A DNA stretch of 64,000 bases from a bacterium (GTDB taxonomy: Bacteria > Patescibacteriota > Minisyncoccia > UBA6257 > JAUSGH01), in NCBI GenBank assembly GCA_030649055.1, contig JAUSGH010000001.1:10907-74906 (forward strand). Reading direction: 5' to 3'. Numbering within the stretch: the stretch's first letter is position 1; each line of letters starts with the position of its first letter. The translations under genes were made by a program, and so were the position numbers. This document shows, piece after piece, positions 11,337 to 50,127 of the stretch. The notes below the pieces were generated by a model, which searched no databases, was not told where the DNA came from, and saw nothing but the letters and a program-made list of their open reading frames with translations.

Positions 11337-11402
11337 TAATTGACGCCAACCCTCTATTCCTTTATATTATTATGCAGTGCAGGCAGCAACGGGAGGTGAG
11401 CG

Positions 11403-11747
11403 ATGACGTGGGAAGAATTTCTGAAGCCGGATCTCAAAGGGCGCGAGGCCGAGATCCGATGGGGTGTCGGGTCTGGCGAACGCGGGTGCATCGACAACAT
11501 CATCTACTACGCCAGGACCGGGGTCGTCTCTGTGTACTGGCGCCTCACCGCTATGCGCTGGGACGTGACAGCGCCGTGGCGGAAGGTGGGCGAGGAAAGG
11601 GGCGGTAACCTGGACGACCCCATCTTCCAGGTCGTCGGCGACCCGGAGAAGAAGGAAGACGGATCGGTGCTATTTCATTTTGGTGGTGGTGAGGTGGAGA
11701 TCTCTCCTCCTGAAGCCGACCGCCAGGCGAAGATCCTCTGTCCGTAG
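11403..11747 (+). CDS. Hypothetical protein (114 aa, GC-rich)
   Basis: Strong GGGAGG RBS 8 nt before the ATG. Confidence 0.5.
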   Translation: MTWEEFLKPDLKGREAEIRWGVGSGERGCIDNIIYYARTGVVSVYWRLTAMRWDVTAPWRKVGEERGGNLDDPIFQVVGDPEKKEDGSVLFHFGGGEVEISPPEADRQAKILCP

Positions 11748-11775
11748 GCAGCCGACGGTTGGTAGTAGTACAACG

Positions 11776-11830
11776 CGAAAACGCAAAGGCCCCGGTGGTA
11801 AATCCATCGAGGCCTTCTACGTTTTACGGA
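11776..11830. terminator. Imperfect long hairpin between convergent genes (candidate terminator)
   Basis: gaaaacgcaaaggcc ... ggccttctacgttttac imperfect inverted repeat. Confidence 0.35.
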
Positions 11831-11854
11831 TCAACTAGGGCTGTCATCCACGCG

Positions 11855-13966
11855 CTATCCCCGCGATTTCTCTTCCTGCCCCATGGCTTTCAAGGATAAC
11901 CCGATCTTCCCATGTTCGGAGCGGACAACTTTCACGCGCACGTGGTCGCCAAGTTTCAATACCTCCGTCACTGTTTTCACGAACCCCTCTTTCAATTCGG
12001 AGACGTGAATCATGCCGTCCTGGTCACCACCCAAATCCACAATCGCGCCGAATTCCAGAATCCGCACCACGTTGCCTTCCACGATATCACCGACTTTATA
12101 TTCCTTGGTGATGCCTTCAATTTCGCGCTTCGCGGCTTCGGCGATTTCGCTGGAAGCACCAGTGATGTACACGAATCCGGTCTGGTCAATGTCAATAGAC
12201 ATGACGCCGGTCTTGGCGATGATGCCGTTAATCATTTTGCCGCCAGGCCCTATGATGAGCCCGAACTTCTCCGGATCCATCGGCATGATGATGATTGCCG
12301 GCGCGTACTTGGAAAGCGTGGCGCGTGGCGCCGCAATTGTCTTCTCCATCGCGCTTAAGATGTGCAAGCGCGCGGCTTTTGCTTGCGCCAAGGTCTTCGC
12401 CGCCATCTCCACCGTGAGTCCCTGGATTTTCACATCAAGCTGAATGGCGTTCACGCCGTCGCGTGTACCAGCGATTTTGAAATCCATGTCGCCATAGTGG
12501 TCCTCCGGCCCCTGGATGTCCGTCAGCACTTTATATTCGCCGTTCGCTCCGGTCATGAGTCCCATCGCGATACCCGCCGCGAGTTTTTTCATCGGCACAC
12601 CCGCGTCCATTAAGGCCATTGAGCCGGCGCAGACCGTTGCCATGGACGATGAGCCGTTGGACGAAAGAATTTCCGAAACCAAACGGATGGCGTACGGAAA
12701 TGTTTCCTTTGACGGAAGCAAATTCACGATGGCTTTTTCCGCCAACGCGGCGTGCCCGATTTCGCGCCGTCCAGGTCCGCGCATGGGGCCCGTTTCGCCG
12801 ACGGAATATTTCGGGAAGTTGTAGTGCAAAAGGAAGCGCTTCTTTCCGGAGAAATCCATCGTCTCAACAAGCTGCTCGCCGGACGGCGGCGCAAGCGTCA
12901 CAACCGCCAATGCCTGTGTGTTGCCGCGGATGAAGAGCGCGCTACCGTGGAGGCGTTCAAGCACGTGTGTCTCGGTGTAGAGTTCGCGCACCTCGTCCAG
13001 TTTGCGGCCGTCCGGACGGCGCTCTTTGGTCAAAATCTGTTCATGGACAAGTACATCAACCATGTCCTCAAACAAGTGCTCCGCCATGCCGAGCGCCGCA
13101 GCGTCCGCCTCGCCTTCTTTCAAATGCTCCATGAGTCCGTCGTGCACAGTCGCCATTTGCTCCTGGCGGGCAACCTTTTCTTTGGTGTATACCGCGGTTT
13201 CAATTTTATCTTTCAGGTATGCCGCGACTTTCTTTTTCAACTCCTCGTCCGGTTCCACGAGCGGAAGCGCCGCTTTCGGTTTGCCGATTTCTTTCACCAT
13301 TTTTTCCTGCAGCGCGACAAGCTTCGCGATTTCTTTTTGCGCGAGGGTGAATCCTTCCACGGTCGCGTCTTCCGATGCTTCGCGGCCTTCAAGCTCAATC
13401 ATGTTGATGCGGTCTTTCGTTCCCGCAACAAATGCATCAAATTCCGGCTCAATCACGTCGGGGAGCTTTGGGTTGACCTGCAAGGCGCCGCCAAGACGCG
13501 CGATGTTTACTCCCGCGACCGGTCCGCCCCACGGAATATCCGAAATGGCGAGCGCGGCAGACGCGGCCATGAGCGCCGCGAAGGGATGGTCGTTTTCTCC
13601 GTCAAAAGAAAGCACGGTGAGAATCACCTGGATTTCACGGCGGATACGTTGGTCAAACAACGGGCGGATAGTGCGGTCAACGAGACGGCCGGCCAAAATG
13701 GCATCGTCCGGCGCCCTGCCTTCGCGGCGCATAAAGCGGCTACCGAGAATTTTCCCGACGGCATAAAAACGCTGTTCGTAGTCAACGGTGAGCGGCAAAT
13801 AATCTCCTTTTGAGGAATTTTTACTCATAACAGCGGTCGCCAAAACGGCGGTGTCGCCATAGTGGCAAATGACCGCGGCGTTTGTCTGCTCCGCGAGCCG
13901 TGAAACTTCAAGCGTGAGCGGTCGGCCCTGAAAATCTATCGTGAACGATTTTTTATTGAGATCCAT
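11855..13966 (-). CDS. pnp: Polynucleotide phosphorylase (polyribonucleotide nucleotidyltransferase)
   Basis: Two RNase PH domains, a KH domain and a C-terminal S1 domain (GDIVEGNVVRILEFGAIVDL). Start set at MDLNKKSF. Confidence 0.93.
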   Translation of the reverse strand: MDLNKKSFTIDFQGRPLTLEVSRLAEQTNAAVICHYGDTAVLATAVMSKNSSKGDYLPLTVDYEQRFYAVGKILGSRFMRREGRAPDDAILAGRLVDRTIRPLFDQRIRREIQVILTVLSFDGENDHPFAALMAASAALAISDIPWGGPVAGVNIARLGGALQVNPKLPDVIEPEFDAFVAGTKDRINMIELEGREASEDATVEGFTLAQKEIAKLVALQEKMVKEIGKPKAALPLVEPDEELKKKVAAYLKDKIETAVYTKEKVARQEQMATVHDGLMEHLKEGEADAAALGMAEHLFEDMVDVLVHEQILTKERRPDGRKLDEVRELYTETHVLERLHGSALFIRGNTQALAVVTLAPPSGEQLVETMDFSGKKRFLLHYNFPKYSVGETGPMRGPGRREIGHAALAEKAIVNLLPSKETFPYAIRLVSEILSSNGSSSMATVCAGSMALMDAGVPMKKLAAGIAMGLMTGANGEYKVLTDIQGPEDHYGDMDFKIAGTRDGVNAIQLDVKIQGLTVEMAAKTLAQAKAARLHILSAMEKTIAAPRATLSKYAPAIIIMPMDPEKFGLIIGPGGKMINGIIAKTGVMSIDIDQTGFVYITGASSEIAEAAKREIEGITKEYKVGDIVEGNVVRILEFGAIVDLGGDQDGMIHVSELKEGFVKTVTEVLKLGDHVRVKVVRSEHGKIGLSLKAMGQEEKSRG

Positions 13967-19385: not shown

Positions 19386-21809
19386 ATGGACAACGTAGAA
19401 AAACGAGAAATAACCCAGGAGCTTCGCGATTCGTATTTGGATTACGCGATGTCGGTCATTGTGTCGCGCGCGCTGCCGGATGTGCGCGACGGTTTGAAGC
19501 CCGTACAGCGGCGTATTTTGTACACCATGCACGAGCTGGGACTTACCTCCACCGCGAAGTTCAGAAAGTGCGCGAAAATCAGCGGCGACACGACCGGCAA
19601 CTACCACCCGCACGGCACGGTCGCGGTCTACGACGCCTTGGCGCGCATGGCGCAGGATTTTTCGCTGCGTTACCCGCTGATTATCGGCCAGGGAAATTTT
19701 GGATCGATCGACGGCGATCCGCCGGCGGCTGAACGTTACACTGAGGCGAAACTTTCCAAAATCGCGGACGAATTGCTTACCGATATTGATAAAGAAACCG
19801 TGGACTGGCAGCAAAACTATGACGGCGTGCGCATGGAGCCGAAATATTTTCCGGCGAGATTGCCGAACATGCTGTTAAACGGCGCCGTTGGTATTGCCGT
19901 CGGCATGGCAACCAACATCCCCCCGCACAATTTGACGGAAGTGGTGGACGCGACGCTGCACACGATTGATAATCCCGATGCCACCGCTGAAGACCTGATG
20001 AACTTTGTGAAAGGGCCGGATTTTCCGACGGGCGGAATTATTTACGACCGCAAAGCAATCACCGCCGCTTACATCGCCGGCCGGGGTGCCATGACCATCC
20101 GCGCGCTTGCGGAAGTAAAGGAGCGCAAAGGCGCGAAAGGCGAGCAGTACAACATTGAAATCACGGAGATTCCGTACCAGGTGAATAAATCCGAGCTTAT
20201 CGTAAAGATGGCGGAACTCGTGACTGAGAAAAAAATTGACGGTATCCGCGACATCCGCGACGAGTCCGACAAGGACGGTATGTCCATTATTGTTGAATTG
20301 AAAAACGACGTACCTCCGCAAAAGGTATTAAACCAGCTCTATCAATACACCGACCTGCAAAAAGATTTCCATTTGAACCTCTTGGCCTTAGCGGACGGCC
20401 TGCAACCGCGGGTCATGTCCATCAAGGACGTCATCGCGGCATACATTGCTCACCGGAAAAACATGGTGCGCCGCCGCGCGGAGTTTGATTTGCGGAAAGC
20501 CGAGGAGCGCGCGCATATTTTGACCGGTCTCGTGAAGGCGTTGGACGACATTGACGCGGTGATTAACACCATCAAGAAATCCGAAGATCGGAACGCCGCG
20601 CACGCGAACCTGATGAAAAAGTTTAAGTTTTCAGAGATTCAGGCGAACGCGATTTTGGAAATGCGTTTGCAGACGCTGGCCGCGTTGGAACGGGAAAAAC
20701 TTGATGCCGAACTGAAAGAAAAGAAAGCGCTTATCGCGGAACTGCAACTTCTCCTAAAAAGCGCGGCAAAAATTTTGGGCGTCATTAAAAAAGAATTGAC
20801 CGAGTTGAGGGAAAAATACGGCGACGAACGGCGCACGAAAGTGGTGGTCGGGGGACTCAAAGAATTCCGTCAGGAAGACCTCGTGCCGCAGGAAGACGTG
20901 GTGATTACGCTTTCTCATGGCGGCTACATCAAGCGCGTGCTGCCGGAGGCGTTTAAGAGCCAGCACCGCGGGGGCAAGGGACTCATCGGATCGGACGTTG
21001 CCGAGGAAGATTTCCTCCAGCATTTTATTTCCGCGAACACGCACGACAACATGCTCTTTTTCACGGATCGCGGAAGAGTATTTCAGACAAAAGCGTATGA
21101 AATTCCTGAGGGTTCGCGCACGTCAAAGGGAAAGTCCGTGCATAACTTTTTGGAAATTTCTCCGGAAGAAAAAATCAGCGCGGTCATCAGTTACACCAAC
21201 GACGACAAGGGCTACCTGGTAATGGCGACGAAAAACGGCATGGTCAAAAAGACCGCGCTTACTGATTTCGGCAATGTCCGCCGCACCGGCATCATCGCGA
21301 TTCGCCTCAAAAAAGGCGATGAGTTGAATTGGGTTATGCTTTCGTCGGGTGGTGATGAGTTGCTGATCACAACCGCGAATGGTCAGGGTATTCGTTTCAA
21401 AGAATCACAAACCCGGCCGATGAGCCGTACGGCAAGCGGCGTTCGCGGTATCCGCCTCAAGGGGAGCGACCACGTGAGCGGATTGGAAATTGTGAAGAAA
21501 GAAACAAAAGACGCGCGTCTCTTAACCGTCATGGCAAACGGCTATGGCAAGCAAACGGAGGTGAAGGAATATAAAACGCAGAATCGCGGAGGATCGGGTG
21601 TCCGCGCCGCGAAAATTACGGCAAAAACCGGACCGCTGATTTCCGCGCATCTTGTTTCAGACGAAACGGAACTTTTAGTACTTTCAGCAAAAGGACAAAT
21701 CATTCGCACGTCATTGGAAAGCGTCCGCCAAGCCGGCCGCGCCACGCAAGGCGTCCGGATTATGAGCTTGAACGCGGGAGATCATTTGATAGGAGTCATC
21801 TGCCTTTAG
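19386..21809 (+). CDS. gyrA: DNA gyrase subunit A
   Basis: [31 protein letters not shown] and the active-site Tyr region, plus C-terminal beta-pinwheel repeats. 807 aa. Confidence 0.93.
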
Positions 21810-21827: not shown

Positions 21828-23117
21828 ATGTCTCGTCGGCTTTTGATTACATTGGGAGTTTTGGCGCTCATCGTCGTCCTTTTTGTATTGGTGTTTACCG
21901 GAGTCATCCCCGGTCTCCGAAAGGACATCACCGCGAATAAAGTCGCGCTTTCCATGTGGGGCGTGTTTGACGCGCCGGATGCATTCAGCGCGGTAATAAA
22001 CGCGTATAAAGCGCAAGCGCCGAATGTGTCAATCGCGTACAAGCAATTTGCTCCGGAGGATTATGAGCGTGAACTGGTGAATGCGTTGGCGGCGGGGAAG
22101 GGGCCGGATATGTTCATGGCGCATAACACCTGGCTCCCGAAACACTATGACAAAATGCTTCCGCTGACCGGCGAATCGCTACCCATCGCGACATTTCGGA
22201 ATCTGTTCCCGCGTGTCGTGGAGCAGGACTTCGCGCCGGACGGCCTCATCTATGCCCTTCCTTTATATGTAGACTCTCTGGCGCTCTTCTATAATAAGGA
22301 CGCGTTTGATAACGCGGGCCGTGCCGTGCCGCCGAAAAATTGGGAACAAGTAAATGCCTTGATTCCCAAACTCCGCGCCATTGACCGGAGCGGAAAAATT
22401 ACGAAAGCCGCGGTTGCTATCGGCGGTTCGCCTAAGAGCATCAACCGCGCGACGGATCTGCTTTCGCTTATTATGATGCAGGGCGGCGCGCCGATGGTCT
22501 CCGAGGGTTTCGGCGGCGCGCAGTTTGCCGTGAAAGGGGCGGCTGGGTTGGATTTCTATACGCAGTTTGTTGATCCAAAAAGCCCGCTCTACACATGGAA
22601 TGACCAACTGCACTATTCACTGGACGCATTCGCGGAGGGGAGCGTGGCGATGATGTTTAACTATCAGTACAACATCGCCGCGTTGAAGCAGAAAAATCCG
22701 TTTTTGATGTTCGGCGTCGCCGGAATGCCGCAGCCACGCACCGCCGCGAATCGCGTTGATTACGCGAACTACTTTGGGCTTGCGGTTTCGGGACGTAGCC
22801 GCAACGCAGCCGCGGCGTGGGATTTCATCAAGTTTTTGACGACAAACGAAAATGTTTCCGCGGCGTATCTTCGGGCAAACGGCCATGCGCCGGCGCTTCG
22901 TGTGCTTATTGACGCGCAGAGCGATGAGTCCGACGCCGGCGTGTTCGCGAGGCAGGCATTGACCGCGCGGTCATATCCGCAAATTGACAATACCGAAGTG
23001 GAGCGCGTCATGGGCGAGTTGATTGAGAACGCCATTTACGGAAAACTTCCGAAGGACCGGGCTTTGCGGCAGGCAGAGGATGCGATAACGACGCTGATTA
23101 GGGAACGGGCGAAGTAA
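21828..23117 (+). CDS. Extracellular solute-binding protein (ABC family-1, sugar type), orphan
   Basis: N-terminal TM/signal anchor and a fold typical of maltose/oligosaccharide-binding proteins. No permease or ATPase genes adjacent. Confidence 0.65.
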   Translation: MSRRLLITLGVLALIVVLFVLVFTGVIPGLRKDITANKVALSMWGVFDAPDAFSAVINAYKAQAPNVSIAYKQFAPEDYERELVNALAAGKGPDMFMAHNTWLPKHYDKMLPLTGESLPIATFRNLFPRVVEQDFAPDGLIYALPLYVDSLALFYNKDAFDNAGRAVPPKNWEQVNALIPKLRAIDRSGKITKAAVAIGGSPKSINRATDLLSLIMMQGGAPMVSEGFGGAQFAVKGAAGLDFYTQFVDPKSPLYTWNDQLHYSLDAFAEGSVAMMFNYQYNIAALKQKNPFLMFGVAGMPQPRTAANRVDYANYFGLAVSGRSRNAAAAWDFIKFLTTNENVSAAYLRANGHAPALRVLIDAQSDESDAGVFARQALTARSYPQIDNTEVERVMGELIENAIYGKLPKDRALRQAEDAITTLIRERAK

Positions 23118-23195
23118 TCCCCTTGTCATTCTGAAGCCGATAGCCATCGGCTGAAGAATCTCAGAGATCCTTCGCTCCGCTCAGGATGACACAGC

Positions 23196-23738
23196 ATGCG
23201 TATATTTATGAAAAAATTTTTTATCACATCAAGCATCGCCTTTCTCGCAAACACGTCAATCGTGTCCGCTGCCGGAATCGTTCCGCAGTGCGAAGGCGTC
23301 ACCTGCTCCATCTGCGATCTCATTAAGCTCGCGCATAACGTGATTCAGTATGCTATTCAACTTTCGTTCGCGCTCGCCGTGGGAATGGTGGTGCTTGGTG
23401 GCTATTATCTGATTACCGCCGGCGGTTCGGAAGAAAAAGTGACGCAAGGGAGAAAAATTGTATGGTACGCGGTAGTGGGACTGGGCATCGTGCTCTCGGG
23501 TTGGGTGCTTATCAATACCATGTTTCAGATTCTCATTAAGTCGCCGTCACCGCGGCCATGGAATGATATTCCCGATGATTGCGGATTGCCCGGAGTAGTG
23601 AATACGATGTCGGCGCCGCCGGTGGTTGGGGCGTCCGGCGCGTTGGAGCCTCAGGGTCCATCGAGCGATCTCATGACTAACCCGAACGACGAAATCAATC
23701 AGCGTTTTCGCGCGCCCGGGGGCGGCGGGAGTTTGTAA
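23196..23738 (+). CDS. Pilin-like small membrane protein, paralog 1 (TrbC/VirB2-like architecture)
   Basis: Signal peptide, CxxC, then two TM helices bracketing a LITAGGSEEKV...GRKIVWYAVVGLGIV motif, and a Gly/Pro-rich tail. The start could be the ATG at 23208. Confidence 0.5.
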   Translation: MRIFMKKFFITSSIAFLANTSIVSAAGIVPQCEGVTCSICDLIKLAHNVIQYAIQLSFALAVGMVVLGGYYLITAGGSEEKVTQGRKIVWYAVVGLGIVLSGWVLINTMFQILIKSPSPRPWNDIPDDCGLPGVVNTMSAPPVVGASGALEPQGPSSDLMTNPNDEINQRFRAPGGGGSL

Positions 23739-23792
23739 AGCCCGCACGCTTGCTTAACGGCGGCAGAACAATGTGTTAGGGTAAAATAAATC

Positions 23793-24227
23793 ATGCTTAA
23801 TCTTCTCGTCAAAACTGCGCACGCGATTACTATCGCTAACCCGTTGGGATACAATACGATTTCCGATCTTATTTGCGGCATCGCTGCCGCGTTGGCGGTG
23901 ATTGCCGGAGCTATAGCGGTGATTATGGTGCTCTACGGCGCGTTCCAGATTTTGACCGCCGGAGGAGAACCAAAAAAGTTCGAGGAAGGCAGGCACACCA
24001 TTATTTACGCCGCGATCGGTCTCGCGGTGGTACTTCTTGCGAGCGGCATTGTTTCGCTGGTAGGAAATATTTTAGGTGACGCCGGAATACAAACGGGAAT
24101 CTTCAGCTGCGGACGGGGCGCGCCGACACAAAATATCCCCGTTCCCATCGTTCCGGAACGTAATCCGTTGTGGGGTAATGACTTCCCAATACCGTCATTA
24201 GATGAGCGTTCTACATTGCGTTTATAA
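23793..24227 (+). CDS. Pilin-like small membrane protein, paralog 2
   Basis: ISDLICGIAAALAVIAGAIAVIMVLYGAFQILTAGGEPKKFEEGRHTIIYAAIGLAVVLL shares the architecture of paralog 1. Confidence 0.5.
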   Translation: MLNLLVKTAHAITIANPLGYNTISDLICGIAAALAVIAGAIAVIMVLYGAFQILTAGGEPKKFEEGRHTIIYAAIGLAVVLLASGIVSLVGNILGDAGIQTGIFSCGRGAPTQNIPVPIVPERNPLWGNDFPIPSLDERSTLRL

Positions 24228-24322
24228 CGCATCCCGGGCACTTTCGCTGTTTTTTAGAAACGGATATGTTATATTGAAACCATAGCATTTTACCGAAAGG
24301 TCGATTATTCACAACATTCAAC

Positions 24323-24694
24323 ATGAAAAATACATTAAATAAATTGGCTGTCGCGGGGGTGGTGGTGATGGCGCTTGCTCCGCTCGCGAGCTTCGCGATT
24401 GTCGGCGTCAACCCGACGCTCCCGTCGGCTGATCTCACTCTCGGAAAGGTAACGACTCTCATTGGCACGATTGCCAACTGGATATTCGCCATTTTCCTTG
24501 CCGTCGCGGTGGTGTACATTCTCTACGCGGCGTATTTGTACTTGAAAGGAGAAGAGGCGGAAATTGAAGAGGCGAAAAAGCGTCTTATCGCGGCAGCGAT
24601 TGCCATCGCAATCGCGTTACTCGCAAAAGGTATTCAACCGTTGGTGGAGAACTTGCTCGGAAGCCAAGGGCAAGGAGGCGCAGGAATCCTTTAG
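24323..24694 (+). CDS. Pilin-like small membrane protein, paralog 3
   Basis: Signal peptide, two TM helices and a LYLKGEEAEIEEAKKRL linker. Same family layout as the two upstream genes. Confidence 0.5.
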   Translation: MKNTLNKLAVAGVVVMALAPLASFAIVGVNPTLPSADLTLGKVTTLIGTIANWIFAIFLAVAVVYILYAAYLYLKGEEAEIEEAKKRLIAAAIAIAIALLAKGIQPLVENLLGSQGQGGAGIL

Positions 24695-24712
24695 TAGCAA
24701 GTGTTGCAAATC

Positions 24713-24750
24713 AAAAACTCCCTTGATGTTCATCGGGGGAGTTTTTGATT
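24713..24750 (+). terminator. Intrinsic terminator
   Basis: aaaaactccc-loop-gggagttttt. Confidence 0.6.
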
Positions 24751-24785
24751 TTAGTGATATTATGTTATGATGGCGGGGAAAGCAT

Positions 24786-24871
24786 GCCCTCGTGGTGCAA
24801 CTGGCAGACACGCAGCGCTTAGGACGCTGTCCCCTAAAGGGTTGGAGGTTCAAATCCTCCCGAGGGCACCA
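24786..24871 (+). tRNA. tRNA-Leu (anticodon TAG), class II with long variable arm, CCA encoded
   Basis: Acceptor gccctcg/cgagggc, anticodon stem cagcg/cgctg with loop cttagga, T-arm ggagg-ttcaaat-cctcc, 3' acca. Confidence 0.75.
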
Positions 24872-24895
24872 ATAAACCAAGAACACGTTCGTTAT

Positions 24896-26668
24896 ATGAA
24901 CATCCCATTGATTTATCTTTTTAGAAAAATGTGGCGATACGCCGAAGATAACCGGCGCAACGTGGTGTTGTATATCTCCATGTTTGTGCTGGCGAATCTT
25001 ATAAGCGCTCTTGAACCGCTTATCGTCGGCGTATTTCTGAATGCCGTTCAGTCGGAGGGAGTGCGCGCGGAGAATGTCCCACACCTTTTTCTTCTCCTTT
25101 GCTTGCTCCCGCTTCTTGAAGTAACATTCTGGTCTTTGCACGGACCGGCGAGAACGATTGAGAATAGGAACGCCTTCATTGTTCGCGCGAATTATAAAAA
25201 CTATCTTTTGCGCGGCGTCATCGCTCTGCCCATTGAGTGGCATACCGACCATCATTCCGGAGATACGATTGATAAGATTGATAAAGGAACTGAGGCGCTA
25301 TTCGGTTTTTCAGAACGGACGTTTGAAGTGCTGCAAACGATTATTATGTTAATCGTTTCGTTTGGCGTGCTGTTCTTCTACGACCGCGTCGCGGGAATTG
25401 TGGCGCTCACGATTAGTGCGCTGACGTTTTATATCATTGCACTTTTTGACAGGAAACTTGTGCCGGGATACAAACGCGTGAACCGTATGGGGAACACTAT
25501 TTCCGAGAAAGTTTTTGATGTCTTGAGTAACGTGACGACCGTGATTATCCTTCGCGTCGAATCGCTTGTCCTCGCATCCATCGACACATTCATCCGGAAA
25601 CCGTTCGCGCAGTATAATATCAACAGCAAATTGAACGAATGGAAATGGTTTTCCGCGGCATTCCTCGGGCGGATGGCGGTTGTTGTAGTGGTCGGTCTGT
25701 ATCTCTTTTCGCGTCTCGGGACGGGGAGCATTCTTATCGGCACGATTTACATTCTCTATGGTTATGCAAATCAGATACGCGAGGCATTCTTCAAATTTTC
25801 ATTTCTCTATAACGACATTGTCCGTTATCGGACATCGGTCAGTAACGCCGAAGAGCTTTCGGAAAATTTTCGCGACGCCGGCGTGTCCGCGGGAAGACAA
25901 CTTCCTGGAGAATGGTCGGTTATCGCGGTCGACGGATTATCGTTCTCATACCATGCGGAAGATGGCGCAACCCTTCACTTGGATAACGTCTCCTTGAGTG
26001 TGCGCAAGGGAGAACGCATTGCGTTTATCGGTGAAAGCGGCGGAGGAAAAAGTACGTTCCTCAAGGTCATGCGCGACCTTTACCACCCGAGGACGCTTGC
26101 GCTAACGGTGGATGGAACACCGATGCCCGAAGGGTTTCTCGCGATTAGCGACTCAATCTCCCTTATTCCGCAAGATCCGGAAATATTCGCAACCACCATA
26201 CGGGAAAATATTACGTTGGGCGTTGATTACACGGATGAACACGTCGGCGCGTTCACCGACATGGCCGCATTTACTGACGTGGTCAGGCGTCTTCCGAAAG
26301 GGCTGGAGTCGTCAATCGTGGAGAAGGGGGTGAACTTGTCCGGAGGTGAGAAACAGCGCCTTGCACTGACGCGCGGACTTTTGGCGTCCGTTGACAAAGA
26401 TATTGTGCTGCTGGATGAACCGACGAGCAGCGTTGATTTTCATAATGAGCTCCAAATCTACGAGAACATATTTAGCGCGTTCCCAAATAAAACGATTATT
26501 TCCTCCGTGCATCGCCTGCATTTGCTGTCGCTTTTCAACTCCGTCTACTTTTTGCGGGACGGAAAAATCATCGCTGCGGGTTCATTTGAGGAGCTGAAAA
26601 AATCATCGCTCGAGTTTCAGGAGTTGTGGGAACAATACATCCGTACGAGAGATGCCTCGGTGTTGTAG
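24896..26668 (+). CDS. ABC transporter permease/ATP-binding fusion protein (MsbA-like exporter)
   Basis: Six-TM N-domain plus NBD with Walker A GESGGGKST, signature LSGGEKQRLALTRGL and Walker B ILLDEPTSSVD. Start trimmed to the ATG at 24896 because the longer ORF overlaps tRNA-Leu. Confidence 0.85.
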   Translation: MNIPLIYLFRKMWRYAEDNRRNVVLYISMFVLANLISALEPLIVGVFLNAVQSEGVRAENVPHLFLLLCLLPLLEVTFWSLHGPARTIENRNAFIVRANYKNYLLRGVIALPIEWHTDHHSGDTIDKIDKGTEALFGFSERTFEVLQTIIMLIVSFGVLFFYDRVAGIVALTISALTFYIIALFDRKLVPGYKRVNRMGNTISEKVFDVLSNVTTVIILRVESLVLASIDTFIRKPFAQYNINSKLNEWKWFSAAFLGRMAVVVVVGLYLFSRLGTGSILIGTIYILYGYANQIREAFFKFSFLYNDIVRYRTSVSNAEELSENFRDAGVSAGRQLPGEWSVIAVDGLSFSYHAEDGATLHLDNVSLSVRKGERIAFIGESGGGKSTFLKVMRDLYHPRTLALTVDGTPMPEGFLAISDSISLIPQDPEIFATTIRENITLGVDYTDEHVGAFTDMAAFTDVVRRLPKGLESSIVEKGVNLSGGEKQRLALTRGLLASVDKDIVLLDEPTSSVDFHNELQIYENIFSAFPNKTIISSVHRLHLLSLFNSVYFLRDGKIIAAGSFEELKKSSLEFQELWEQYIRTRDASVL

Positions 26669-26673
26669 GCGCC

Positions 26674-27582
26674 TTATCTCCGTCTTCCGTGAAAACTTTT
26701 ATGAATTTCTTTCAGTTCTTTGTTGGTGAGGTGGGTATACACTTGCGTCGTTGAAACATTGCTGTGTCCGAGGAGTTCCTGCACCGAGCGGAGATCCGCG
26801 CCGTTCACGAGGAGGTCGGTGGCAAAAAGATGGCGCAAGCCATGCGGAGTGAGTCGCTTCCCGACAATGCCGGCTTTCTTGCCATAGTAATGAATAAGCC
26901 GCTGCACGGTGCGCGGAATGATGCGCCCCAACACCTTCGGCTGCTTCGCTTTGCTCATGCTGACAAACAGCGCTTCGTCGGCATCACCGCGCCCGGCGAG
27001 ATATGTGTCAACGGCTTTCCTTGCGCGGTCGGAGATAAACACTACGCGTAGCTTGTCTCCTTTGCCGCGCACGGTGATTTCACCTTGCTTGAAGTTAAGG
27101 TAGCGGCTTAATTTGCAAAGTTCCGAAACGCGCAGTCCCGTGGAGAAAAGCATTTCAAGAATTGCGCGATCGCGGAGCGCGCGGAGATCGGTGCCCGAAG
27201 GCGCGGCAAGCAGGCGTTCCAGTTCGGCATATTCAATAATTTCAATTTGCCGGTCGCCGAGCTTTGGGAGTTCTATTTTTTCGGGAGAGGGAACAACGTA
27301 ATCCTGCTTCGCGAGATATTTCAGAAAATTGCGGATAGCGATGACGTAGTAGCTTTGGGTGCTTTTCTTGAGCGGCTCGCCGGATGGGGCGCTGGTGCGG
27401 GCGAGCGCGAGGCGAAAATCCTTTATTTTATCAAGGGTGAAATTACGCAACGTCGTGACGCCGGACTGCTTGATGAAATGACGCAAATAGCGCTCGTAAT
27501 TCTCGCGCGTTTTTGGCGAGCGGTTTTTCTCAACTTCAAGGTAGTCCAGATATTCTTTTAAAAGTTTTTCAATCTCGATCAT
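26674..27582 (-). CDS. Tyrosine site-specific recombinase XerC/XerD family
   Basis: C-terminal catalytic region HGLRHLFATDLLVNGADLRSVQELLGHSNVSTTQVYTHL with R..HxxR..Y. Start set at MIEIEKLLKEYLDYL. Confidence 0.8.
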   Translation of the reverse strand: MIEIEKLLKEYLDYLEVEKNRSPKTRENYERYLRHFIKQSGVTTLRNFTLDKIKDFRLALARTSAPSGEPLKKSTQSYYVIAIRNFLKYLAKQDYVVPSPEKIELPKLGDRQIEIIEYAELERLLAAPSGTDLRALRDRAILEMLFSTGLRVSELCKLSRYLNFKQGEITVRGKGDKLRVVFISDRARKAVDTYLAGRGDADEALFVSMSKAKQPKVLGRIIPRTVQRLIHYYGKKAGIVGKRLTPHGLRHLFATDLLVNGADLRSVQELLGHSNVSTTQVYTHLTNKELKEIHKSFHGRRR

Positions 27583-27721
27583 TATCTTCAGTATACATTG
27601 TGCGACACATGGGGAACATGTATTGAGTATCGAGTATTGAGAAGTGAGTATGGGATGCATACGCTCAGCATTTGTTTGGCATACTGTCTTCTCTATACTC
27701 AATACAGCATACTTCGCAAAG

Positions 27722-27749
27722 TTGCATCTTTTTGCGTATCGCGTATAAT
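27722..27749 (+). promoter_or_regulatory. Sigma70-like promoter upstream of ftsH
   Basis: TTGCAT, 16-nt spacer, TATAAT. A second extended -10 TGTATAAT lies at 27773-27780, only 10 nt before the ATG. Confidence 0.5.
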
Positions 27750-27790
27750 TTACGGAATACCGCAAGCACGTTGTATAATGAAGTCATCGT

Positions 27791-30771: not shown

Positions 30772-30844
30772 GGGCGTGTAGCTCAATGGTTAGAGCACCG
30801 AGCTTATACCTCGGTGGTTCCTGGTTCGAGTCCAGGCACGCCCA
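30772..30844 (+). tRNA. tRNA-Ile (anticodon TAT)
   Basis: Acceptor gggcgtg/cacgccc, D-arm gctc-aatggtta-gagc, anticodon stem ccgag/ctcgg with loop cttatac, T-arm cctgg-ttcgagt-ccagg. No CCA encoded. Confidence 0.7.
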
Positions 30845-30890
30845 CAAATTTATTACATCCGAGCGAACCGATTGCATGCTAAAGGCATGG

Positions 30891-33370: not shown

Positions 33371-33437
33371 TGTCATTCCCGCGGAAGCGGGAATCTAGAA
33401 TTTGTGGACTAGATTCCGGATCGAGTCCGGAATGACA
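33371..33437. mobile_element. MITE-like palindromic intergenic repeat, copy 2 (short variant)
   Basis: tgtcattcccgcggaagcgggaatctagaatttgtggactagattccggatcgagtccggaatgaca. Same termini as the other copies. A related mini-palindrome gtcatccgaggatgac follows. Confidence 0.6.
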
Positions 33438-33485
33438 AGTCATCCGAGGATGACAAGCAGGGAGTGGTGCTATAATGAAAATACA

Positions 33486-36400
33486 ATGACGCTATATTTT
33501 GGTCCGTCAAAATTCTTGCTTCTTTGCTTTCTTGCTTCTTTGCTTTTATTTTCCTCTGCGCACGCCCAGACCGCCGGCACGTGGGACTCGCGCGCGGCGG
33601 TTTCGGCAAGCGTGAGTCAATCCGCGAGCCTTCTCGCATACCCGGGTAGCGGCAATCTTATCTATCAGCGCCGTGGCGACGATAATACGTTCAATAGTTA
33701 CAGCATCTCCGGAGATTCGTGGTCGGCGCTTACCTCCGACAACTGCGGCGCAGGCATCGGCAACGGCTCATTTTTAGTGCGCGGCGATAGCGGATTTTTG
33801 TACGCCGCGTGTCCCGGCGGGAACGACACAACGGACTTCGTGCGCTATGATATCTCTGGCGCCGATTGGGAGGAGCGCGCAACCTCGCCTTCTGGTTTTG
33901 GAAACGGTGCTGCGGCGGTATGGGACGGCAGCGACTATATATACGCGCTTCCTGGCGATGCAATGGCTGCTTTTTATCGCTACACCATTTCTACTAATGT
34001 GTGGGACTCCATGACTGCCTCGCCGACGGGTGTTACCGGTGGCGGCTCACTTGCATATCCCGGGAGCGGCAACTTTATTTACGCTTTCCGTGGTAGTGAC
34101 CTCACAACATTCTACCGCTACCACATCACCGAAAACGACTGGTCACCCATAACCGCCGCGCCAGATACCGTTGGTGGCGGCGGCTCGCTTGTTGCTATCG
34201 ACACGTCAACAATCTACGCCTTGCGCGGTGAAGGGGGCGGTACGCCACGAACGGATTTCTGGAGCTACGGCATCTCCGGCGACAGCTGGACGGTGCTCAC
34301 CGTCGCCCCAGCGGCTGTCGGCGCAGGTGGATCTCTTGCCTATGTGTCCAATTCATCGGGAACATTTCTCTATCAGCTCCGCGGTAATGCGACTACGGAT
34401 TTCAATCGGTATACCATTTCCGTCGTAGCGGCGAGTACCGGCAGTTCGGCCGGCAGCTTCCTTCTTGCCGCTCGGCAAGACGGGGGACTTTCGCTTGCTC
34501 GCGCAACGCCACCCGCCTCGCCGACAAATGTCGTGGTGACGCCATTGCCGTGCAACGGCACCTGCGGCGCGACAATCGCGCTTTCATACGCCGCGCTTTC
34601 CGTGCATCGTGGGCGCCCGATGACGTTCGCGTTTATCGATGAATCCGGGAAAACATTGGGAAGCATCTACGAGCCGTACGCGAACGGAAAGTCATACACT
34701 ATGGAGCTCAAAAATCTTCCGCAAAACAGCCCATTAAACGGACGGCTTTGCGCGCAGTTCAGTCCTGGTGAGGGTTGCGCGAATGTCCAAAGCTGGACGC
34801 TCTGGTCGCTTGACGCCGCAAAAGTGAAATTAAGCGCCGCGCCTGAGGGTGACCGGTATCGTGTGCGCGTGGCAGTCCCTCCGTTTATGAATGAGGGGGT
34901 GGATGCGAGCGGCGTGCGTGTTGCGATAGAGGAGAACGGCGCGGTAAAACCCATGAGCATGAAAAACGGCCGCGTGCCGGCCGCGACGCTTGCGCAAGTC
35001 GTTACAACAATCGGTACGCACGAGACAATAACGCAGGTTGCGCCGTTCATAAACACCGCGATTACCCCCCCAGCGCCTTCCGGTGGACTTTCCGTGCCCC
35101 GTACTACGCTTGATGTTATTTCTATACTTCCCGTCATACAGGCGGCGCCGAAAACAGGGAGTGGCGGAATCTCCGTGCCGTCAAAAGCAGCTCCGTCGCC
35201 GGTGCCGGTGAAGGAGAGTTTGCCCGGAACATTACTCCAAAGATCCGGCGAGTGGGCAACCATGCTTGCGCCTGGCGAATATCGCATGGTCTTGACTCCC
35301 ATAAACGGCAAAGGCGTGCTCGGTGTTCCGCTTACACTGCCGCTGTCACTCAAACCCTTTGGCGAAGCGATGACACTTACGGCCGGCATGGAGGCGGAGG
35401 ATGGCACGCTCCGGACAATAATCGATGCGACCTCGAATCGTCTTGGGAATACCGGCATAGACATCATTGCGGAGCGTAAAGGAAGCGCCTTCGCGTTTCG
35501 CTCGACGGAGAAATCCGTTGAGGTACGCGTGTCACTTGTCGCGGCGCTCGCGAAAGCTGAAGAACATTTTGATTTTGTTTTTGCGTGCGCGCCCGGGGGA
35601 GGTAACTGCGCGGTAAAAAGCGTTGCCGCGCAAAAAGGGAATATTATCAACCGAGCGGCCATTGCGAAAAACAGCAACGGATTTGTGACGGTGAAAACGG
35701 AAGATGCGATTGCGACGGTGCGCGTAACCGAAGGGATAACGCAGATAAGCATTTCCGCGACCGGGGAGTTGAAGCGGCTGAGGAGCGAAGAATACGTCGC
35801 GTTAAACGCGCTTCGCGGCGGCACCGCGACATTTTCCGTTTCAGCGGCCGATGTACTTGGAAATACCGCGGCGATCCGCGACGTGCCGGTGAACATTCCG
35901 GGGAGCGAGGCGGCGATTGCCGCGTTTACCGTTACGTCCGCGGGCGATGAGGGTGACGTGGAAGCGCGTGGAGTTATTGATTATTCGAATTTCACCGCGC
36001 GCGGATTGCTACTTAATCTTTCGTTCGCCGAGGAAGGATTGAGCGTCGAGGGTACAGTGGCAAGTATTCCGCAGTTGGTGCAGTTGCTCGTCGCGCGCGA
36101 TGACGGGACGGGCGTACAATTCGCGCTTTCGTGCGAAGCCTCGCCACAGGCGGGCGAAGCCTCGCCGCAGGTAGGCGAAAAAACTTGCGGTATTGTCGCG
36201 ATCGCGGCGCCTCAAGGAACGCCGCTTGAAGTAGTGCCTGAAGAAAATCCGGACGGCACAATGCGCGCGGAGGCGGGCGGCATCACGCTGACGTATGATA
36301 CGCAAAACGCATTGCCGATGCTTGTCGGGGCGGATGCGGCGGGATTTTCCAATATTGAAATCCGCGCGCGCTACCCGTCATTCGGTCTCGGTAATTTCAC

Positions 36401-36689
36401 GGGAGTTATGATCGCGAATGAAGCGCGCGCCAGCGCGGCATTTTTTGGAGTCGGAAAATATTTAAATCTTTTTCCGGAGGTGATTGAAAAGGTTATTTTG
36501 GACCTTGCTCCGCTTATCATTAACTACATCGCGCCGCAAAACGCCGCTCCGATTATAGAAAGTGTAGAGGGATCGCGCATGGTGTCCCAGTCGCGTCCGG
36601 TACAGATTTTGCGGCAAGCATCCGAGGTTGGCGCGCCGGTGAGTCCGTTGCTCAACGCCATCCGTAATCTTTTCGGCGGCGAGCAGTAG
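33486..36689 (+). CDS. Large secreted protein with an N-terminal six-blade Kelch-like repeat region and a long Ala/Gly/Thr/Val-rich C-terminal region
   Basis: Signal peptide (LLLCFLASLLLFSSAHA). Six repeats of about 50 aa with Y[AQ][LF]RG...TDF.RY.IS...W, consistent with a beta-propeller. Start trimmed to the ATG at 33486 downstream of the MITE-like copy. Confidence 0.6.
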   Translation: MTLYFGPSKFLLLCFLASLLLFSSAHAQTAGTWDSRAAVSASVSQSASLLAYPGSGNLIYQRRGDDNTFNSYSISGDSWSALTSDNCGAGIGNGSFLVRGDSGFLYAACPGGNDTTDFVRYDISGADWEERATSPSGFGNGAAAVWDGSDYIYALPGDAMAAFYRYTISTNVWDSMTASPTGVTGGGSLAYPGSGNFIYAFRGSDLTTFYRYHITENDWSPITAAPDTVGGGGSLVAIDTSTIYALRGEGGGTPRTDFWSYGISGDSWTVLTVAPAAVGAGGSLAYVSNSSGTFLYQLRGNATTDFNRYTISVVAASTGSSAGSFLLAARQDGGLSLARATPPASPTNVVVTPLPCNGTCGATIALSYAALSVHRGRPMTFAFIDESGKTLGSIYEPYANGKSYTMELKNLPQNSPLNGRLCAQFSPGEGCANVQSWTLWSLDAAKVKLSAAPEGDRYRVRVAVPPFMNEGVDASGVRVAIEENGAVKPMSMKNGRVPAATLAQVVTTIGTHETITQVAPFINTAITPPAPSGGLSVPRTTLDVISILPVIQAAPKTGSGGISVPSKAAPSPVPVKESLPGTLLQRSGEWATMLAPGEYRMVLTPINGKGVLGVPLTLPLSLKPFGEAMTLTAGMEAEDGTLRTIIDATSNRLGNTGIDIIAERKGSAFAFRSTEKSVEVRVSLVAALAKAEEHFDFVFACAPGGGNCAVKSVAAQKGNIINRAAIAKNSNGFVTVKTEDAIATVRVTEGITQISISATGELKRLRSEEYVALNALRGGTATFSVSAADVLGNTAAIRDVPVNIPGSEAAIAAFTVTSAGDEGDVEARGVIDYSNFTARGLLLNLSFAEEGLSVEGTVASIPQLVQLLVARDDGTGVQFALSCEASPQAGEASPQVGEKTCGIVAIAAPQGTPLEVVPEENPDGTMRAEAGGITLTYDTQNALPMLVGADAAGFSNIEIRARYPSFGLGNFTGVMIANEARASAAFFGVGKYLNLFPEVIEKVILDLAPLIINYIAPQNAAPIIESVEGSRMVSQSRPVQILRQASEVGAPVSPLLNAIRNLFGGEQ

Positions 36690-46657: not shown

Positions 46658-47552
46658 AATGATTACACTGAAATGTTGACCTTAAAGCATAACCCCTGCG
46701 GCTCCTAGTCCTCCATAAAGAGGACAATTTCCAGAGCCGCGCACAGCGGCTTTTGTCGTTGTAAGGGGACCGGTGCTGACTGAAACGAACGGACATTGAT
46801 AAACAGGATCTGACAGAAAATTCTTTTTTGTCGGGTGCTCATAAGTAAATCAATGCAAATGAAAACGCAATTTCAAGAGTATTATCGAAAGCATTCAATG
46901 CTTCGATGATCGGTTTTACTGCTCAATATCTGCATGATGGCGGAGTATTGAGTACGCCTCGTTAAGTCGCCTCAGGCGACCGCGAGGTTGCACGCGTTGA
47001 ATTCAGAGCGTGTATAAGGGCGTATGGTGGATGCCTAGACACAAAATGGCGATGAAGGACGCAGCATAACTGCGATAAGCTTCGGGGAGGTGTGTAGCAA
47101 CCTTTGATCCGGAGATTTCCGAATGGGGAAACCCTGCGCGGTAAACCCGCGTAACGCATGCGATTAAACGCGCATGTGAGCAGACCCGCTGAAGTGAAAC
47201 ATCTCAGTAAGCGGAGGAATAAAAATAGATTAGATTCCCCAAGTAGCGGCGAGCGAAAAGGGAACAGCCTAAACTTTAGTGTGTGCAGCAATGTATACGC
47301 TGGAGGGTTGCAAGGGTAAGACATTTTTGCGTATCGCAAAGCTCTCGTTAAACAGGGCTGTGCGATTCGCGGAAGATTGGTTACAAATTGCTTCGTTAGC
47401 TGAAGCTTCTGGAAAGAAGCGCCAAAGTGAGTGATAGCCTCGTAAGCGAAAACAAAGCAACCAATTCGTTTTATTTCTTAAGTACCTCGAGACCACAACA
47501 TCTCGAGGGAATCCGCCAGTACTATCTGGTAAGGCTAAATACATTTTGTGAT

Positions 47553-47589
<37 letters not shown>

Positions 47590-49458
47590 CAGCCCGGCGA
47601 GGGCGCTGAAATAGTACCTGAAACCATATGTCTACAAGGACTAGAAGTCCAACCACTGAGCAATCAGTGGCGGACAACTAGGTGCCTATTGAAGAATGAG
47701 CCAACGACTTTACGTTTACTGCTTGTCTAAGTCGCTTCATGCGACGGAGGCATAGGGAAACCGAGTGTTAATAGCGCGTTCTCTTATTTATGACCGAGTA
47801 GCTGGTATGCTTCCAGCGTTCGGTCATAGATGAGAAGGCAGTAAGTGTAAGACCCGAAGCCAAGGCGAGCTTGCCCTGACCAGGATGAACCCGAGCGAAA
47901 GCGAGGGGGAGGTCCGAACCAGTTGATTGTGCAAAATCTTTGGATGAGTTGGGGTAAGAAGTGAAAAGCTAATCGAGCTTGGTAATAGCTGGTTCTCTCC
48001 GAAATAGTTTTAGGACTAGCGTTCCGCAAAAACCGTATGGGGGTAGAGCACTGGTTGATTCGTATTGGGGGAAACCTCGGCGCATCAGTCAAACTCCGAA
48101 TACCATACGGGACGCGGGATAGTCAGACTGTGGGGGCAAAGCTCCATGGTCGCGAGGGGAATAGCCCAGACCGTCGTCTAAGGTCCCTAAATTCTTGCTA
48201 AGTGTAAAAGGTAGTCATGCCCCAGAGACAGATAGGAGGTTGGCTTAGAGGTAGCCATCCTTTAAAGAGTGTGTAACAACTCACTATTCGATGGGTCGTG
48301 GCGCCAAAAATGTACCGGGGCTAAGCAAGATACCGACGACACGGGTGTCCATGACTTCGGTCGTGGACGCGGTAGGAGAGCATTCTGATTGCTGTGAAGG
48401 TTCATCCGTGAGGAGGACTGGAGCGTTCAGGAGTGAGAATGTTGGCATGAGTAACCATCAAATCCGATGAGAAATCGGATCCCCGAAAATCCAAGGTTTC
48501 CGTGGCAATGGCAATCAACCACGGGTTAGGCGATCCTAAGGCAATGGCGAAAACCGTAGCCGATGGGTAGCCGGTTAATATTCCGGCCCGCGCTTATTTG
48601 TGCGATGGGGTGACGGAGGAAAAAAGGTTGAGCGTCTCAATGGTTTGACGTCGCTGATGATAAGGAATGTGTTCTTGGCAAATCCGGAGCACTGTGTTTA
48701 ATCGCGAATTCCGCGCGTCGGCGTAAGGCCAAGTTTTACTTGGCTAATTCAACTGAAGAGCCTTCCAAGAAAAACCTCTAAGTTTAGGATAAGCGCATCG
48801 TACCGTAAACCGACACAGGTGGGTGAGGCGAGACGCCTCAGGGGAACGAGTGAGTCTTGGTCAAGGAACTAGGCAAAAAAGCGGCCGTACCTTCGGTATA
48901 AGGCCTGCCCGTCACGCCGCAAGGTGTGCATGGGCTGCAACAAAAGTACATTTGGCGACTGTTTATCAAAAACACAGCTTCCTGCTAACTCGTAAGAGGA
49001 TGTATAGGAGGTGACACTTGACCGATGCGAGAAGGTTAACGGTGGGTGTGTATTCGAAAGCAATTTTGGATATGCTCACTGCCCGAAGCCCTCGTCAATG
49101 TCAGCGGTAACTATAACCGTTCTAAGGTAGCGCAATTCCTTTCCGGGTAAGTTCCGGAGCGCATGAATAGTGTAACGATCGAATGACTGTCTCGACCAAG
49201 AGCTCGGTGAAATTGCGATTCCCGTGAAGACGCGGGATACCTGTAACGGGACGAAAAGACCCCGGGAGCTTTACTGTAGTTTGATATTGGCTTTAACGTT
49301 TTTCTGCGTAGCGTAGTGGCGAGGGTATGAAACCTGGTTTTCGGATCAGGTGGACCCGACAATGAAACAGCCATCTGGAAAATGTTAAAATCTAACCTTT
49401 ACGGCAAAAACGTATTGGGACAGTGTCTGATGGGCAGTTTTAATGGGGCGTTATCCTC

Positions 49459-49793: not shown

Positions 49794-50127
49794 GCCTAAA
49801 AAGTAACGGAGGAGTTTATTAAGGTTGGCTTAGCGCGAATGGAAACCGCGCTGGACGTGTAAACGCAAAAGCCAGCTTGACGGCAAGACCTACAAGTCGC
49901 GCCGGTGCGAAAGCAGAAGTTAGTGACCCGATGATCCGTCATAGAATGGTCAGAGACATCGGCTAAAAGTTACCCCGGGGATAACAGGCTAGTCTGGTCC
50001 GAGAGTTCCTATCGACGACCAGGCTCGGCACCTCGATGTCGGCTCGCCCTAGCGCGGAGGTGGAGAAGCTTCCAAGCGTATGGCTGTTCGCCATTTAAAA
50101 GGGCACGTGAGCTGGGTTCAAACCGTC

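Follow-up and report, generated by a model that had tools for sequence, protein, structure and literature searches.

We have analysed a 64 kb stretch of a Patescibacteria chromosome (contig JAUSGH010000001.1, positions 10,907 to 74,906; hereafter the window), in which a gene for a family-1 solute-binding protein (SBP) is followed on the same strand by three small genes for pilin-like proteins, here called pil1, pil2 and pil3. The region 21828–24752 is probably the Paceibacteria (Parcubacteria) version of the VirB2-like pilin array of Patescibacteria. That the locus belongs to the Patescibacteria kind of type IV secretion system (T4SS) pilin array is very likely in our view, and a real functional coupling between the SBP and a pilus is put forward only tentatively. 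Because tandem VirB2-like pilin arrays have already been published for Patescibacteria, the core finding is not new in kind, and the published picture of these arrays is left unchanged by this locus. What is new here, and modestly so, is a conserved SBP–pilin operon beside gyrA in Paceibacteria, with three order-conserved pilin subtypes; that is, in Paceibacteria a defined set of three pilin subtypes stays firmly joined to an oligosaccharide-binding protein. The original prediction for this DNA had combined the SBP, the pilins, a tRNA-Leu and an exporter into one surface-appendage or host-interaction module. The idea of such a module agrees with the published Patescibacteria arrays (PMC12102498, PMC10633639, PMC12857230), and the unit that is actually conserved is the SBP–pilin pairing, which had been overlooked.

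Conservation of the SBP–pilin block in Paceibacteria

The block begins with the SBP gene at 21828–23117, which encodes a membrane-anchored family-1 protein of the MalE-like, oligosaccharide type. It continues with three members of the T4SS_pilin family, namely pil1 at 23196–23738 (180 aa, first-position subtype), pil2 at 23793–24227 (144 aa, second-position subtype) and pil3 at 24323–24694 (123 aa, last-position subtype). All four genes lie on the forward strand, with 54 nt between pil1 and pil2 and 95 nt between pil2 and pil3, and the list of open reading frames (ORFs) of the window confirmed the coordinates that had been given for them.

We have scanned species-representative genomes with an alignment of 18 SBP orthologs, and kept 80 of the 298 matched loci, which come from Harrison-, Wolfe-, Lipton-, Yanofsky-, Colwell-, Brenner-, Portnoy- and Azambacteria and others. 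Pilin genes in these loci were detected by an iterated local pilin hidden Markov model (HMM) applied to all ORFs, and adjacency was counted when a pilin-like ORF started within 300 nt of the SBP gene on the same strand. Among the 75 usable loci, i.e., those that extend 500 nt or more past the SBP gene, the SBP ortholog (37–54% identical) directly precedes the pilins in 68, and in two more (L063 and L045) the adjacent array is overlapping or divergent in orientation. The SBP had been called an orphan; in the sense of a stray gene, this description cannot be kept in view of these counts. The contiguous pilin run after the SBP comprises 1–6 genes with a mode of 3, and the median gap between the SBP and the first pilin is 5 nt.

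Individual loci illustrate how closely the two parts stay together. In L002, whose SBP is 90% identical to that of the window, gyrA, the SBP and three pilins are followed in turn by HicB/HicA, tRNA-Leu, an unknown gene, a PMT glycosyltransferase, Xer and FtsH. In L006 (SBP 42% identical), the SBP is likewise followed by three pilins, with other genes downstream. Two loci are rearranged: a block of a hydrolase gene and gyrA has been inverted away in L019, where the SBP and three pilins remain together, and in L045 the pilins are inverted yet still abut the SBP, which now precedes the hydrolase–gyrA block. Overall, the SBP–pilin junction is kept in at least 91% of the loci, while the genes downstream of the array are highly variable. 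Only L087 clearly separates the two among the loci with enough sequence, as its roughly 1.9 kb beyond the SBP give no match to the pilin HMM; the remaining cases that look like exceptions result from contigs that end early or from artefacts of ORF selection. Within 10 kb on either side of the SBP in the 80 loci, the recurrent gene clusters are those of housekeeping genes, namely gyrA, a beta-lactamase-fold hydrolase, S1/PNPase, NYN, FtsH, Xer, Band7 and an S-adenosylmethionine (SAM) methyltransferase.

In certain lineages, the first gene after the SBP is much longer. The one in L060 (Yanofskybacteria-type; 11354–13183) encodes about 600 aa with a pilin-like transmembrane (TM) hairpin and a C-terminal SLT lytic transglycosylase domain (PF01464, 3e-11), and judging from its sequence this fusion appears to place the VirB1-like activity of T4SSs on a pilin fold. 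First genes of similar extent, known by size only, follow the SBP in L065 (11343–13163), L077 (11237–12745) and L081 (11326–13116).

Two further observations concern the arrays themselves. Conserved unannotated genes (clusters c20, c23, c38 and c65) lie within the longer arrays. In addition, L065 and L069 come from the same metagenome-assembled genome, VMGG01 (Parcubacteria bacterium Gr01-1014_2), which thus carries two separate methyltransferase–SBP–pilin modules whose genes are arranged in a similar way; either the module has been duplicated or the bin mixes two related populations.

Positional subtypes and tail variation

When the three window pilins were compared with the other arrays, each found its best match mostly at its own position: pil1 in the first gene (59 of 67 loci), pil2 in the second gene (52 of 66 loci) and pil3 in the last gene (40 of 59 loci). 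This conserved positional orthology indicates that the triplet consists of old specialised subtypes, not of recently duplicated, interchangeable cassettes. Repeated pilin genes had been proposed to serve as antigenic variants, which is a poor fit, as the paralogs are positionally conserved across genomes whose SBPs are only 37–54% identical. We have therefore rejected recent duplication for antigenic variation as the explanation of the three copies.

The variation that is observed lies within each subtype. Between the window and L002, the identity is 90% for the SBP, 76% for pil1, 80% for pil2, 80.5% for pil3 and 97% for FtsH. The differences between the pilin orthologs cluster in the C-terminal tails of pil1 and pil2, which are rich in Pro, Gly and Ser and also change in length, and the cores are conserved. 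In VirB2 and TraA, the loop faces the cytoplasm or lumen and the two termini lie outside. If the hairpin of the present proteins sits in the same way, the filament would display the tails of pil1 and pil2 on its surface, and this tail variation may be what remains of the antigenic-variation idea.

Family assignment and structure of the pilin-like proteins

All three proteins match the T4SS_pilin family PF18895 above its gathering threshold of 26.6 bits, with scores of 33.7 (pil1), 45.7 (pil2) and 45.3 (pil3), and the precomputed annotation of the three proteins in L001 agrees with this assignment. A check against pilin-family HMMs had been suggested, with the lack of any support as the refuting outcome; support is found, and it comes through PF18895. 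The more specific claim of a TrbC/VirB2 architecture stands for the T4SS pilin-like family in the wide sense, but not for TrbC/VirB2 proper. In the Pfam search, PF04956 (TrbC/VirB2) matches pil2 with 18.3 bits (E 0.0028), below its gathering threshold of 27.9, and matches neither pil1 nor pil3. An hhalign comparison of a 64-sequence pilin profile with VirB2 of A. tumefaciens C58 was null (probability 0.9%). The same profile, compared with all PDB chains, hit only a designed repeat protein (E 0.42), and a Foldseek search of the PDB with the pilin model returned nothing at E ≤ 0.001. Several homologs, on the other hand, match both PF18895 and PF04956.

We have also compared the proteins with two other groups. 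For the Mbov_0395 family of NCBIfam (NF045849), the three pilins score 27.7, 23.3 and 15.7 bits, where the cutoff is 40. The only plasmid match in a tblastn search (E 0.02) is a Mbov_0395-type gene on a Pontibacillus megaplasmid; a VirB4-like ATPase of the CD1110 family lies 4 kb downstream of it, along with a large peptidoglycan hydrolase. Together with the double Pfam matches, these similarities speak independently for a link of the family to the T4SSs of monoderms. Type IV pilus pilins were rejected as a candidate, given that the proteins have no class III leader of the form G↓F(T/S)LxE and no N_methyl or pilin Pfam match at E ≤ 1.

The three genes are paralogs, as had been proposed, though distant ones. 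BLASTP aligns pil1 with pil2 at E 4e-9 over the loop and the second helix and pil2 with pil3 at E 0.012, and it detects no similarity between pil1 and pil3. According to hydropathy, each protein has two hydrophobic helices around a short Lys/Arg/Glu-rich loop. The description of each as a signal peptide plus two TM helices is thus correct for the helices in all three proteins, and a plausible signal peptide is present in pil1 and pil3. It is wrong for pil2, since only 11 residues precede the conserved ITIANPLG and the leader is noncanonical. In a similar way, the proposed common core L(I/T)AGG...G(R/K)xxI(I/V)(Y/W)AA can be recognised in pil1 and pil2 but is degenerate in pil3 (YLK-GEEAE...KRLIAAAIAI).

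Pil1 has a putative Sec signal peptide (VSA↓AG), a Cys-rich N-terminal segment (PQCEGVTCSICD), TM segments at residues 49–67 and 88–106, a further Cys and a variable Pro/Gly-rich tail. Its Cys pattern is a conserved C-x7-C-x2-C before helix 1 and one Cys after helix 2; this pil1-type pattern dominates the consensus of the wider family, and the Cys residues may form extracellular disulfides. In pil2, the leader MLNLLVKTAHA and ITIANPLG are followed by the two TM helices and a variable, disordered tail. The short leader is also present in an 84%-identical ortholog, and a more distant pil2 ortholog (L006b) has a full hydrophobic leader. The AlphaFold model of pil2, built on a 75-sequence alignment, has helices at residues 20–55 and 60–95 and an unstructured tail at 96–144; its mean predicted local distance difference test (pLDDT) score is 69, with about 80 in the hairpin and 52–66 in the tail. 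Pil3 carries a putative Sec signal peptide (SFA↓IV, hydrophobic stretch 9–27), TM segments at 54–72 and 88–106, and a short tail.

A homolog search with pil2 alone gave only 5 proteins, and the 64-sequence profile was needed to reach further. The wider family is very large; it counts 108,786 representative clusters at a cutoff of E ≤ 1e-3, and still 44,613 at E ≤ 1e-10. Many database proteins (for example P0243–P0255) contain several pilin-like domains per chain; P0244, for instance, has 17 matched stretches in 1,775 aa. Either these are genuine fusions of several pilins, or gene calling with the wrong genetic code has merged whole arrays into single chains, and the latter could happen in lineages of the Candidate Phyla Radiation (CPR) in which UGA is recoded.

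The solute-binding protein

The first gene of the block encodes a family-1 SBP, as predicted (PF01547 2e-28, PF13416 1e-27). The protein has an N-terminal TM helix at residues 5–23 and no lipobox Cys. Its AlphaFold (AF2) model has a pLDDT of 86, and the best Foldseek matches of the model are the oligosaccharide SBPs 5ci5, the cellodextrin-binding CbpB (7x0k) and MalE (3uor), with E values of 1e-22 to 1e-25. A profile search of the PDB with the protein also leads to oligosaccharide SBPs (best 1e-29). Its nearest named relatives are found in Candidatus Harrisonbacteria and other Parcubacteria/Paceibacteria.

The statement that this SBP lacks a cognate permease or ATPase is upheld. We have found neither a BPD_transp_1 permease nor an importer ATPase among the window ORFs of about 100 aa or more, and MalFG permeases and type IV pilus assembly genes are likewise missing from this set. 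Within 10 kb on either side of the 80 SBP orthologs, no T4SS cluster and no importer-permease cluster is recurrent. When compared with a MalEFGK-type importer, the locus therefore has the family-1 SBP, and adjacent permeases and an ATPase are lacking.

Relation to published arrays and known systems

Quinonero-Coronel et al. 2025 searched 3,035 Patescibacteria genomes, in which Paceibacteria are among the best-represented classes, with PF04956 and PF18895 (PMC12102498). They found VirB4 in 2,417 of the 3,035 genomes, as a clade nested within the monoderm MPF-FATA class, and VirB2-like pilins in 1,948 of the VirB4-containing assemblies, near virB4 in only 1,135 of those (PMC12102498). An array was defined there as at least two PF04956/PF18895 genes, in tandem or with one non-pilin gene between them; 441 arrays with 2–11 pilin genes each were reported from 383 assemblies, with a mean identity of about 25%, and host-range or antigenic versatility was suggested as their role (PMC12102498). 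In Southlakia epibionticum, the pilin series of the SEML1 T4SS locus is essential (Wang et al. 2023, PMC10633639). A 2025 review regards the Patescibacteria systems as unique among monoderms in their potential for conjugative pili (PMC12857230), and a 2024 perspective terms the role of the Patescibacteria T4SS 'completely unknown' (PMC11665869). That is, although essential in the one species tested, the T4SS and pilin arrays of Patescibacteria have a role that is still an open question in the field.

The locus in the window, with its three consecutive PF18895 genes, is an array in the published sense, and three genes lie inside the published range of 2–11. It resembles the published arrays in being a tandem of divergent (about 25–40% identical) small genes of the PF18895/PF04956 type, which are chromosomal, non-conjugative and carried by an ultrasmall monoderm. 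It differs from them in having no virB4 in the 64 kb window, a conserved SBP_bac_1 head beside gyrA, and subtypes of conserved order. In the parts of the published Patescibacteria/Parcubacteria pilin literature that our search covered, we have found no mention of an SBP alongside pilin arrays.

The distance to the VirB2/TrbC/TraA conjugative pilins of diderms (T-pilus, RP4, F and R388 TrwL) is larger. Here the PF04956 score is below threshold and the VirB2 profile comparison is null, the host is a monoderm without an outer membrane, no virB genes are adjacent, and the C-terminal tails are long and disordered. In addition, pil1 has four conserved Cys, whereas canonical conjugative pilins use cyclisation or acetylation. 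The Mbov_0395-family proteins of integrative and conjugative elements and plasmids in Mycoplasma and Bacillota show a weak but consistent similarity, together with monoderm T4SS neighbours (VirB4 of the CD1110 type). Their genes, however, are single-copy and lie inside conjugation clusters, whereas here a three-gene array is placed away from any VirB4.

For the SBP, an analogy can be drawn with PrgZ/TraC, the pheromone-binding SBPs of the Enterococcus plasmids pCF10 and pAD1, and with ChvE-VirA, by which Agrobacterium senses sugars. In these cases, an SBP without an adjacent permease of its own is encoded or acts with a T4SS and senses or captures an external cue. The analogy does not extend to the protein families, as PrgZ is a family-5 peptide binder and ChvE a family-2-type monosaccharide binder, whereas the protein here is of the family-1 oligosaccharide type and anchored by a TM helix.

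Boundary of the block

Directly 3' of the pil3 stop codon, a long, perfectly paired hairpin bordered by A- and T-runs lies at 24708–24752 on the forward strand. It resembles an intrinsic terminator and closes the pilin transcription unit; the fold of 24690–24790 reaches -40.4 kcal/mol (z -5.4), and none of 200 shuffles was equally stable. The predicted tRNA-Leu does exist. It is a tRNA-Leu(UAG) at 24786–24871, forward strand, found by both ARAGORN and Rfam (51 bits), and starts 34 nt past the hairpin. Nine relatives were scanned for tRNAs, and six of them (L002, L019, L024, L033, L037 and L044) have the same tRNA-Leu(UAG) a few kb beyond the 3' end of the array; this tRNA is thus a syntenic landmark, and a neighbour outside the module.

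The exporter gene begins 25 nt past the tRNA and extends over 24896–26668 on the forward strand (590 aa), in a separate transcription unit; a longer ORF at 24767–26668 overruns the tRNA-Leu, and the start at 24896 follows the gene call in L001. The protein is a half-transporter with the ABC_membrane (PF00664) and ABC_tran (PF00005) domains of ATP-binding cassette (ABC) transporters, and its earlier designation as MsbA-type holds only at the fold level (TIGR02203 152.5 bits against a cutoff of 602). Its best NCBIfam match is PRK13657, with 196 bits against a cutoff of 733, and no equivalog is reached, so by sequence it would be assignable only as a generic ABCB-type exporter. It is a variable neighbour: in L002 the exporter is absent, with HicAB and the PMT glycosyltransferase in its place, and its cluster is not recurrent in the 80 related loci. 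Because a terminator intervenes and the exporter is neither present in L002 nor recurrent, we have excluded the tRNA-Leu and the exporter from the module, and the single co-oriented block that had been proposed does not hold as one unit.

Beyond the exporter, a recombinase of the Xer/phage-integrase family lies on the minus strand at 26674–27765. The interval from the tRNA-Leu(UAG) to this gene (24786–27765; L002 11518–14317) holds different cargo in the two genomes, namely the ABC exporter in the window and the unknown gene plus PMT in L002, where HicAB stands immediately before the tRNA-Leu. The interval looks like a small variable region or an integration hot spot.

Within the block, the 78-nt spacer between the SBP and pil1 contains a structured element of 68 nt (23124–23191, forward strand), which is predicted to fold into a three-way junction without a T-run (-29.1 kcal/mol, z -4.1, 0 of 200 shuffles equally stable). 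Rfam at its gathering threshold gives no match to this spacer. The structure occurs as a single copy in the window and is not conserved in L002, where the gap is 45 nt, and a repeat family was rejected as its explanation for these reasons. On the opposite strand, a spurious ORF reads this element as the peptide 'HPERSEGS'.

Proposed mechanism and alternative explanations

The mechanism that we consider the most likely, with moderate confidence in the overall picture, can be outlined as follows. The pilin hairpins would be inserted in the cytoplasmic membrane with both ends outside. A VirB4-based, monoderm-type (MPF-FATA-like) T4SS encoded elsewhere in the chromosome would then extract the pilins from this membrane pool and polymerise them into a short filament or channel, heteromeric or built of major and minor subunits, which contacts the host cell; the variable tails of pil1 and pil2 would lie on the filament exterior. 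The SBP would stay at the membrane surface and might bind an oligosaccharide derived from the host or the envelope, and it might serve the appendage as a coupled receptor or sensor instead of feeding a local ABC importer; these last two steps are the least certain ones. In this proposal, a membrane-anchored MalE-like SBP has been recruited as a fixed component of a T4SS pilus and couples recognition of a glycan on the host surface or released by the host to the assembly or use of the appendage without an ABC permease, which we consider possible but doubtful. With similar reserve, the recruited module may be written as the SBP, an SLT–pilin fusion in some lineages, and at least three order-conserved pilin subtypes. 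If true, the recruitment would give a monoderm episymbiont a type IV secretion pilus that is guided by a binding protein. The SBP ectodomain would also be a soluble, expressible handle, whose ligand could indicate what the appendage recognises on the host.

Several points weigh against this proposal. The genes upstream of the SBP, i.e., LactB3 (the beta-lactamase-fold hydrolase), a 117-aa gene (c5), gyrA (70 of 81 loci) and sometimes the SAM methyltransferase, show almost the same degree of synteny as the pilins, and adjacency alone therefore cannot prove function. The SBP–pilin adjacency could be inherited gene order in compact genomes, in which co-orientation over-suggests operons, instead of functional coupling. 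A pilin array of a non-Paceibacteria lineage (L089) has no SBP. VirB4, VirB3, VirB6 and VirD4 are found neither among the ORFs of at least about 100 aa in the 64 kb window nor within 10 kb in the 80 loci, and no virB/trb/tra mating-pair-formation cluster surrounds the array. Moreover, the portions of the Patescibacteria T4SS and pilin papers that we consulted do not report an imaged filament of PF18895 proteins.

These points lead to an alternative that we rate as about as plausible as the recruited SBP, that is, unlikely but to be taken seriously: the SBP and the pilins are functionally unrelated neighbours in a frozen gene order around gyrA, where the SBP serves an ABC sugar importer with permease and ATPase genes elsewhere and the pilins a distant T4SS. 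The upstream synteny and the L089 array speak for it, as do the short intergenic gaps found everywhere (the upstream gene is a median of 22 nt from the SBP) and the resemblance of the SBP to ordinary oligosaccharide SBPs. On the other hand, the two independent rearrangements in L019 and L045 have cut the gyrA–SBP link and spared the adjacency of SBP and pilins, the junction is kept while the downstream genes vary, and none of the 80 genomes has a permease cluster within 10 kb. A different doubt concerns the word pilin itself, which may be a carried-over name. The three proteins could be small membrane components that line or stabilise the channel of a T4SS translocon or another envelope complex and never form a filament. 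The lack of a significant VirB2/TrbC/TraA match by sequence or Foldseek, the missing canonical signal peptide of pil2, and the general absence of pili from monoderm T4SSs (PMC12102498) are in line with it. We hold this to be rather improbable, as all three proteins pass PF18895 and several homologs match PF04956 too, as multi-copy divergent arrays with variable tails better fit exposed subunits than fixed channel parts, and as reviews treat such proteins as potential pilus formers (PMC12857230). The least credible proposal, to which we give hardly any weight, is the one that makes the SBP, the pilins, the tRNA-Leu and the ABC exporter a single host-interaction block whose exporter secretes an appendage-linked substrate. 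These genes are co-oriented and physically close, but the strong terminator between pil3 and the tRNA, the replacement of the exporter in so near a relative as L002, its lack of recurrence and the variable cargo of the tRNA-Leu-to-Xer interval all argue against it.

Other features of the window

The array has gyrA, the SBP, the tRNA-Leu, the ABC exporter, Xer and FtsH as its neighbours, and the window as a whole is a housekeeping stretch of the chromosome, with SecA, MurB, PNPase, ribosomal protein S1, GyrA, FtsH, RpoB/RpoC and FtsW. Downstream, a 23S rRNA at 47004–50703 spans 3.7 kb, compared with 2.9 kb in the model, and contains a group I intron at 49461–49723 (Rfam RF00028, 75 bits); a 5S rRNA follows at 50828–50943. 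A 16S gene was not detected in the 64 kb by the Rfam scan, and because the 23S–5S pair stands in the window without it, the rRNA operon appears to be unlinked.

A tRNA-Ile with the anticodon UAU lies at 30772–30845, and relatives have it too (L002 17384–17457, L008 285–358, L033 2548–2622). In most bacteria, the AUA codon is read by a lysidine-modified CAU tRNA, so the conserved tRNA-Ile(UAU) suggests a different solution to AUA decoding in this lineage. An ORF of 1,095 aa at 33402–36689, with an N-terminal hydrophobic segment and no Pfam match, may encode a large secreted or surface protein of a kind common in CPR genomes. Finally, the window GyrA (19386–21809) has 807 aa and is intein-free, and GyrA reaches 1,220–1,344 aa in several relatives (L002 3792–7454, L065 5383–9417, L060 5087–8992, L070 5271–9134), of which the L002 protein contains an intein-splicing domain.

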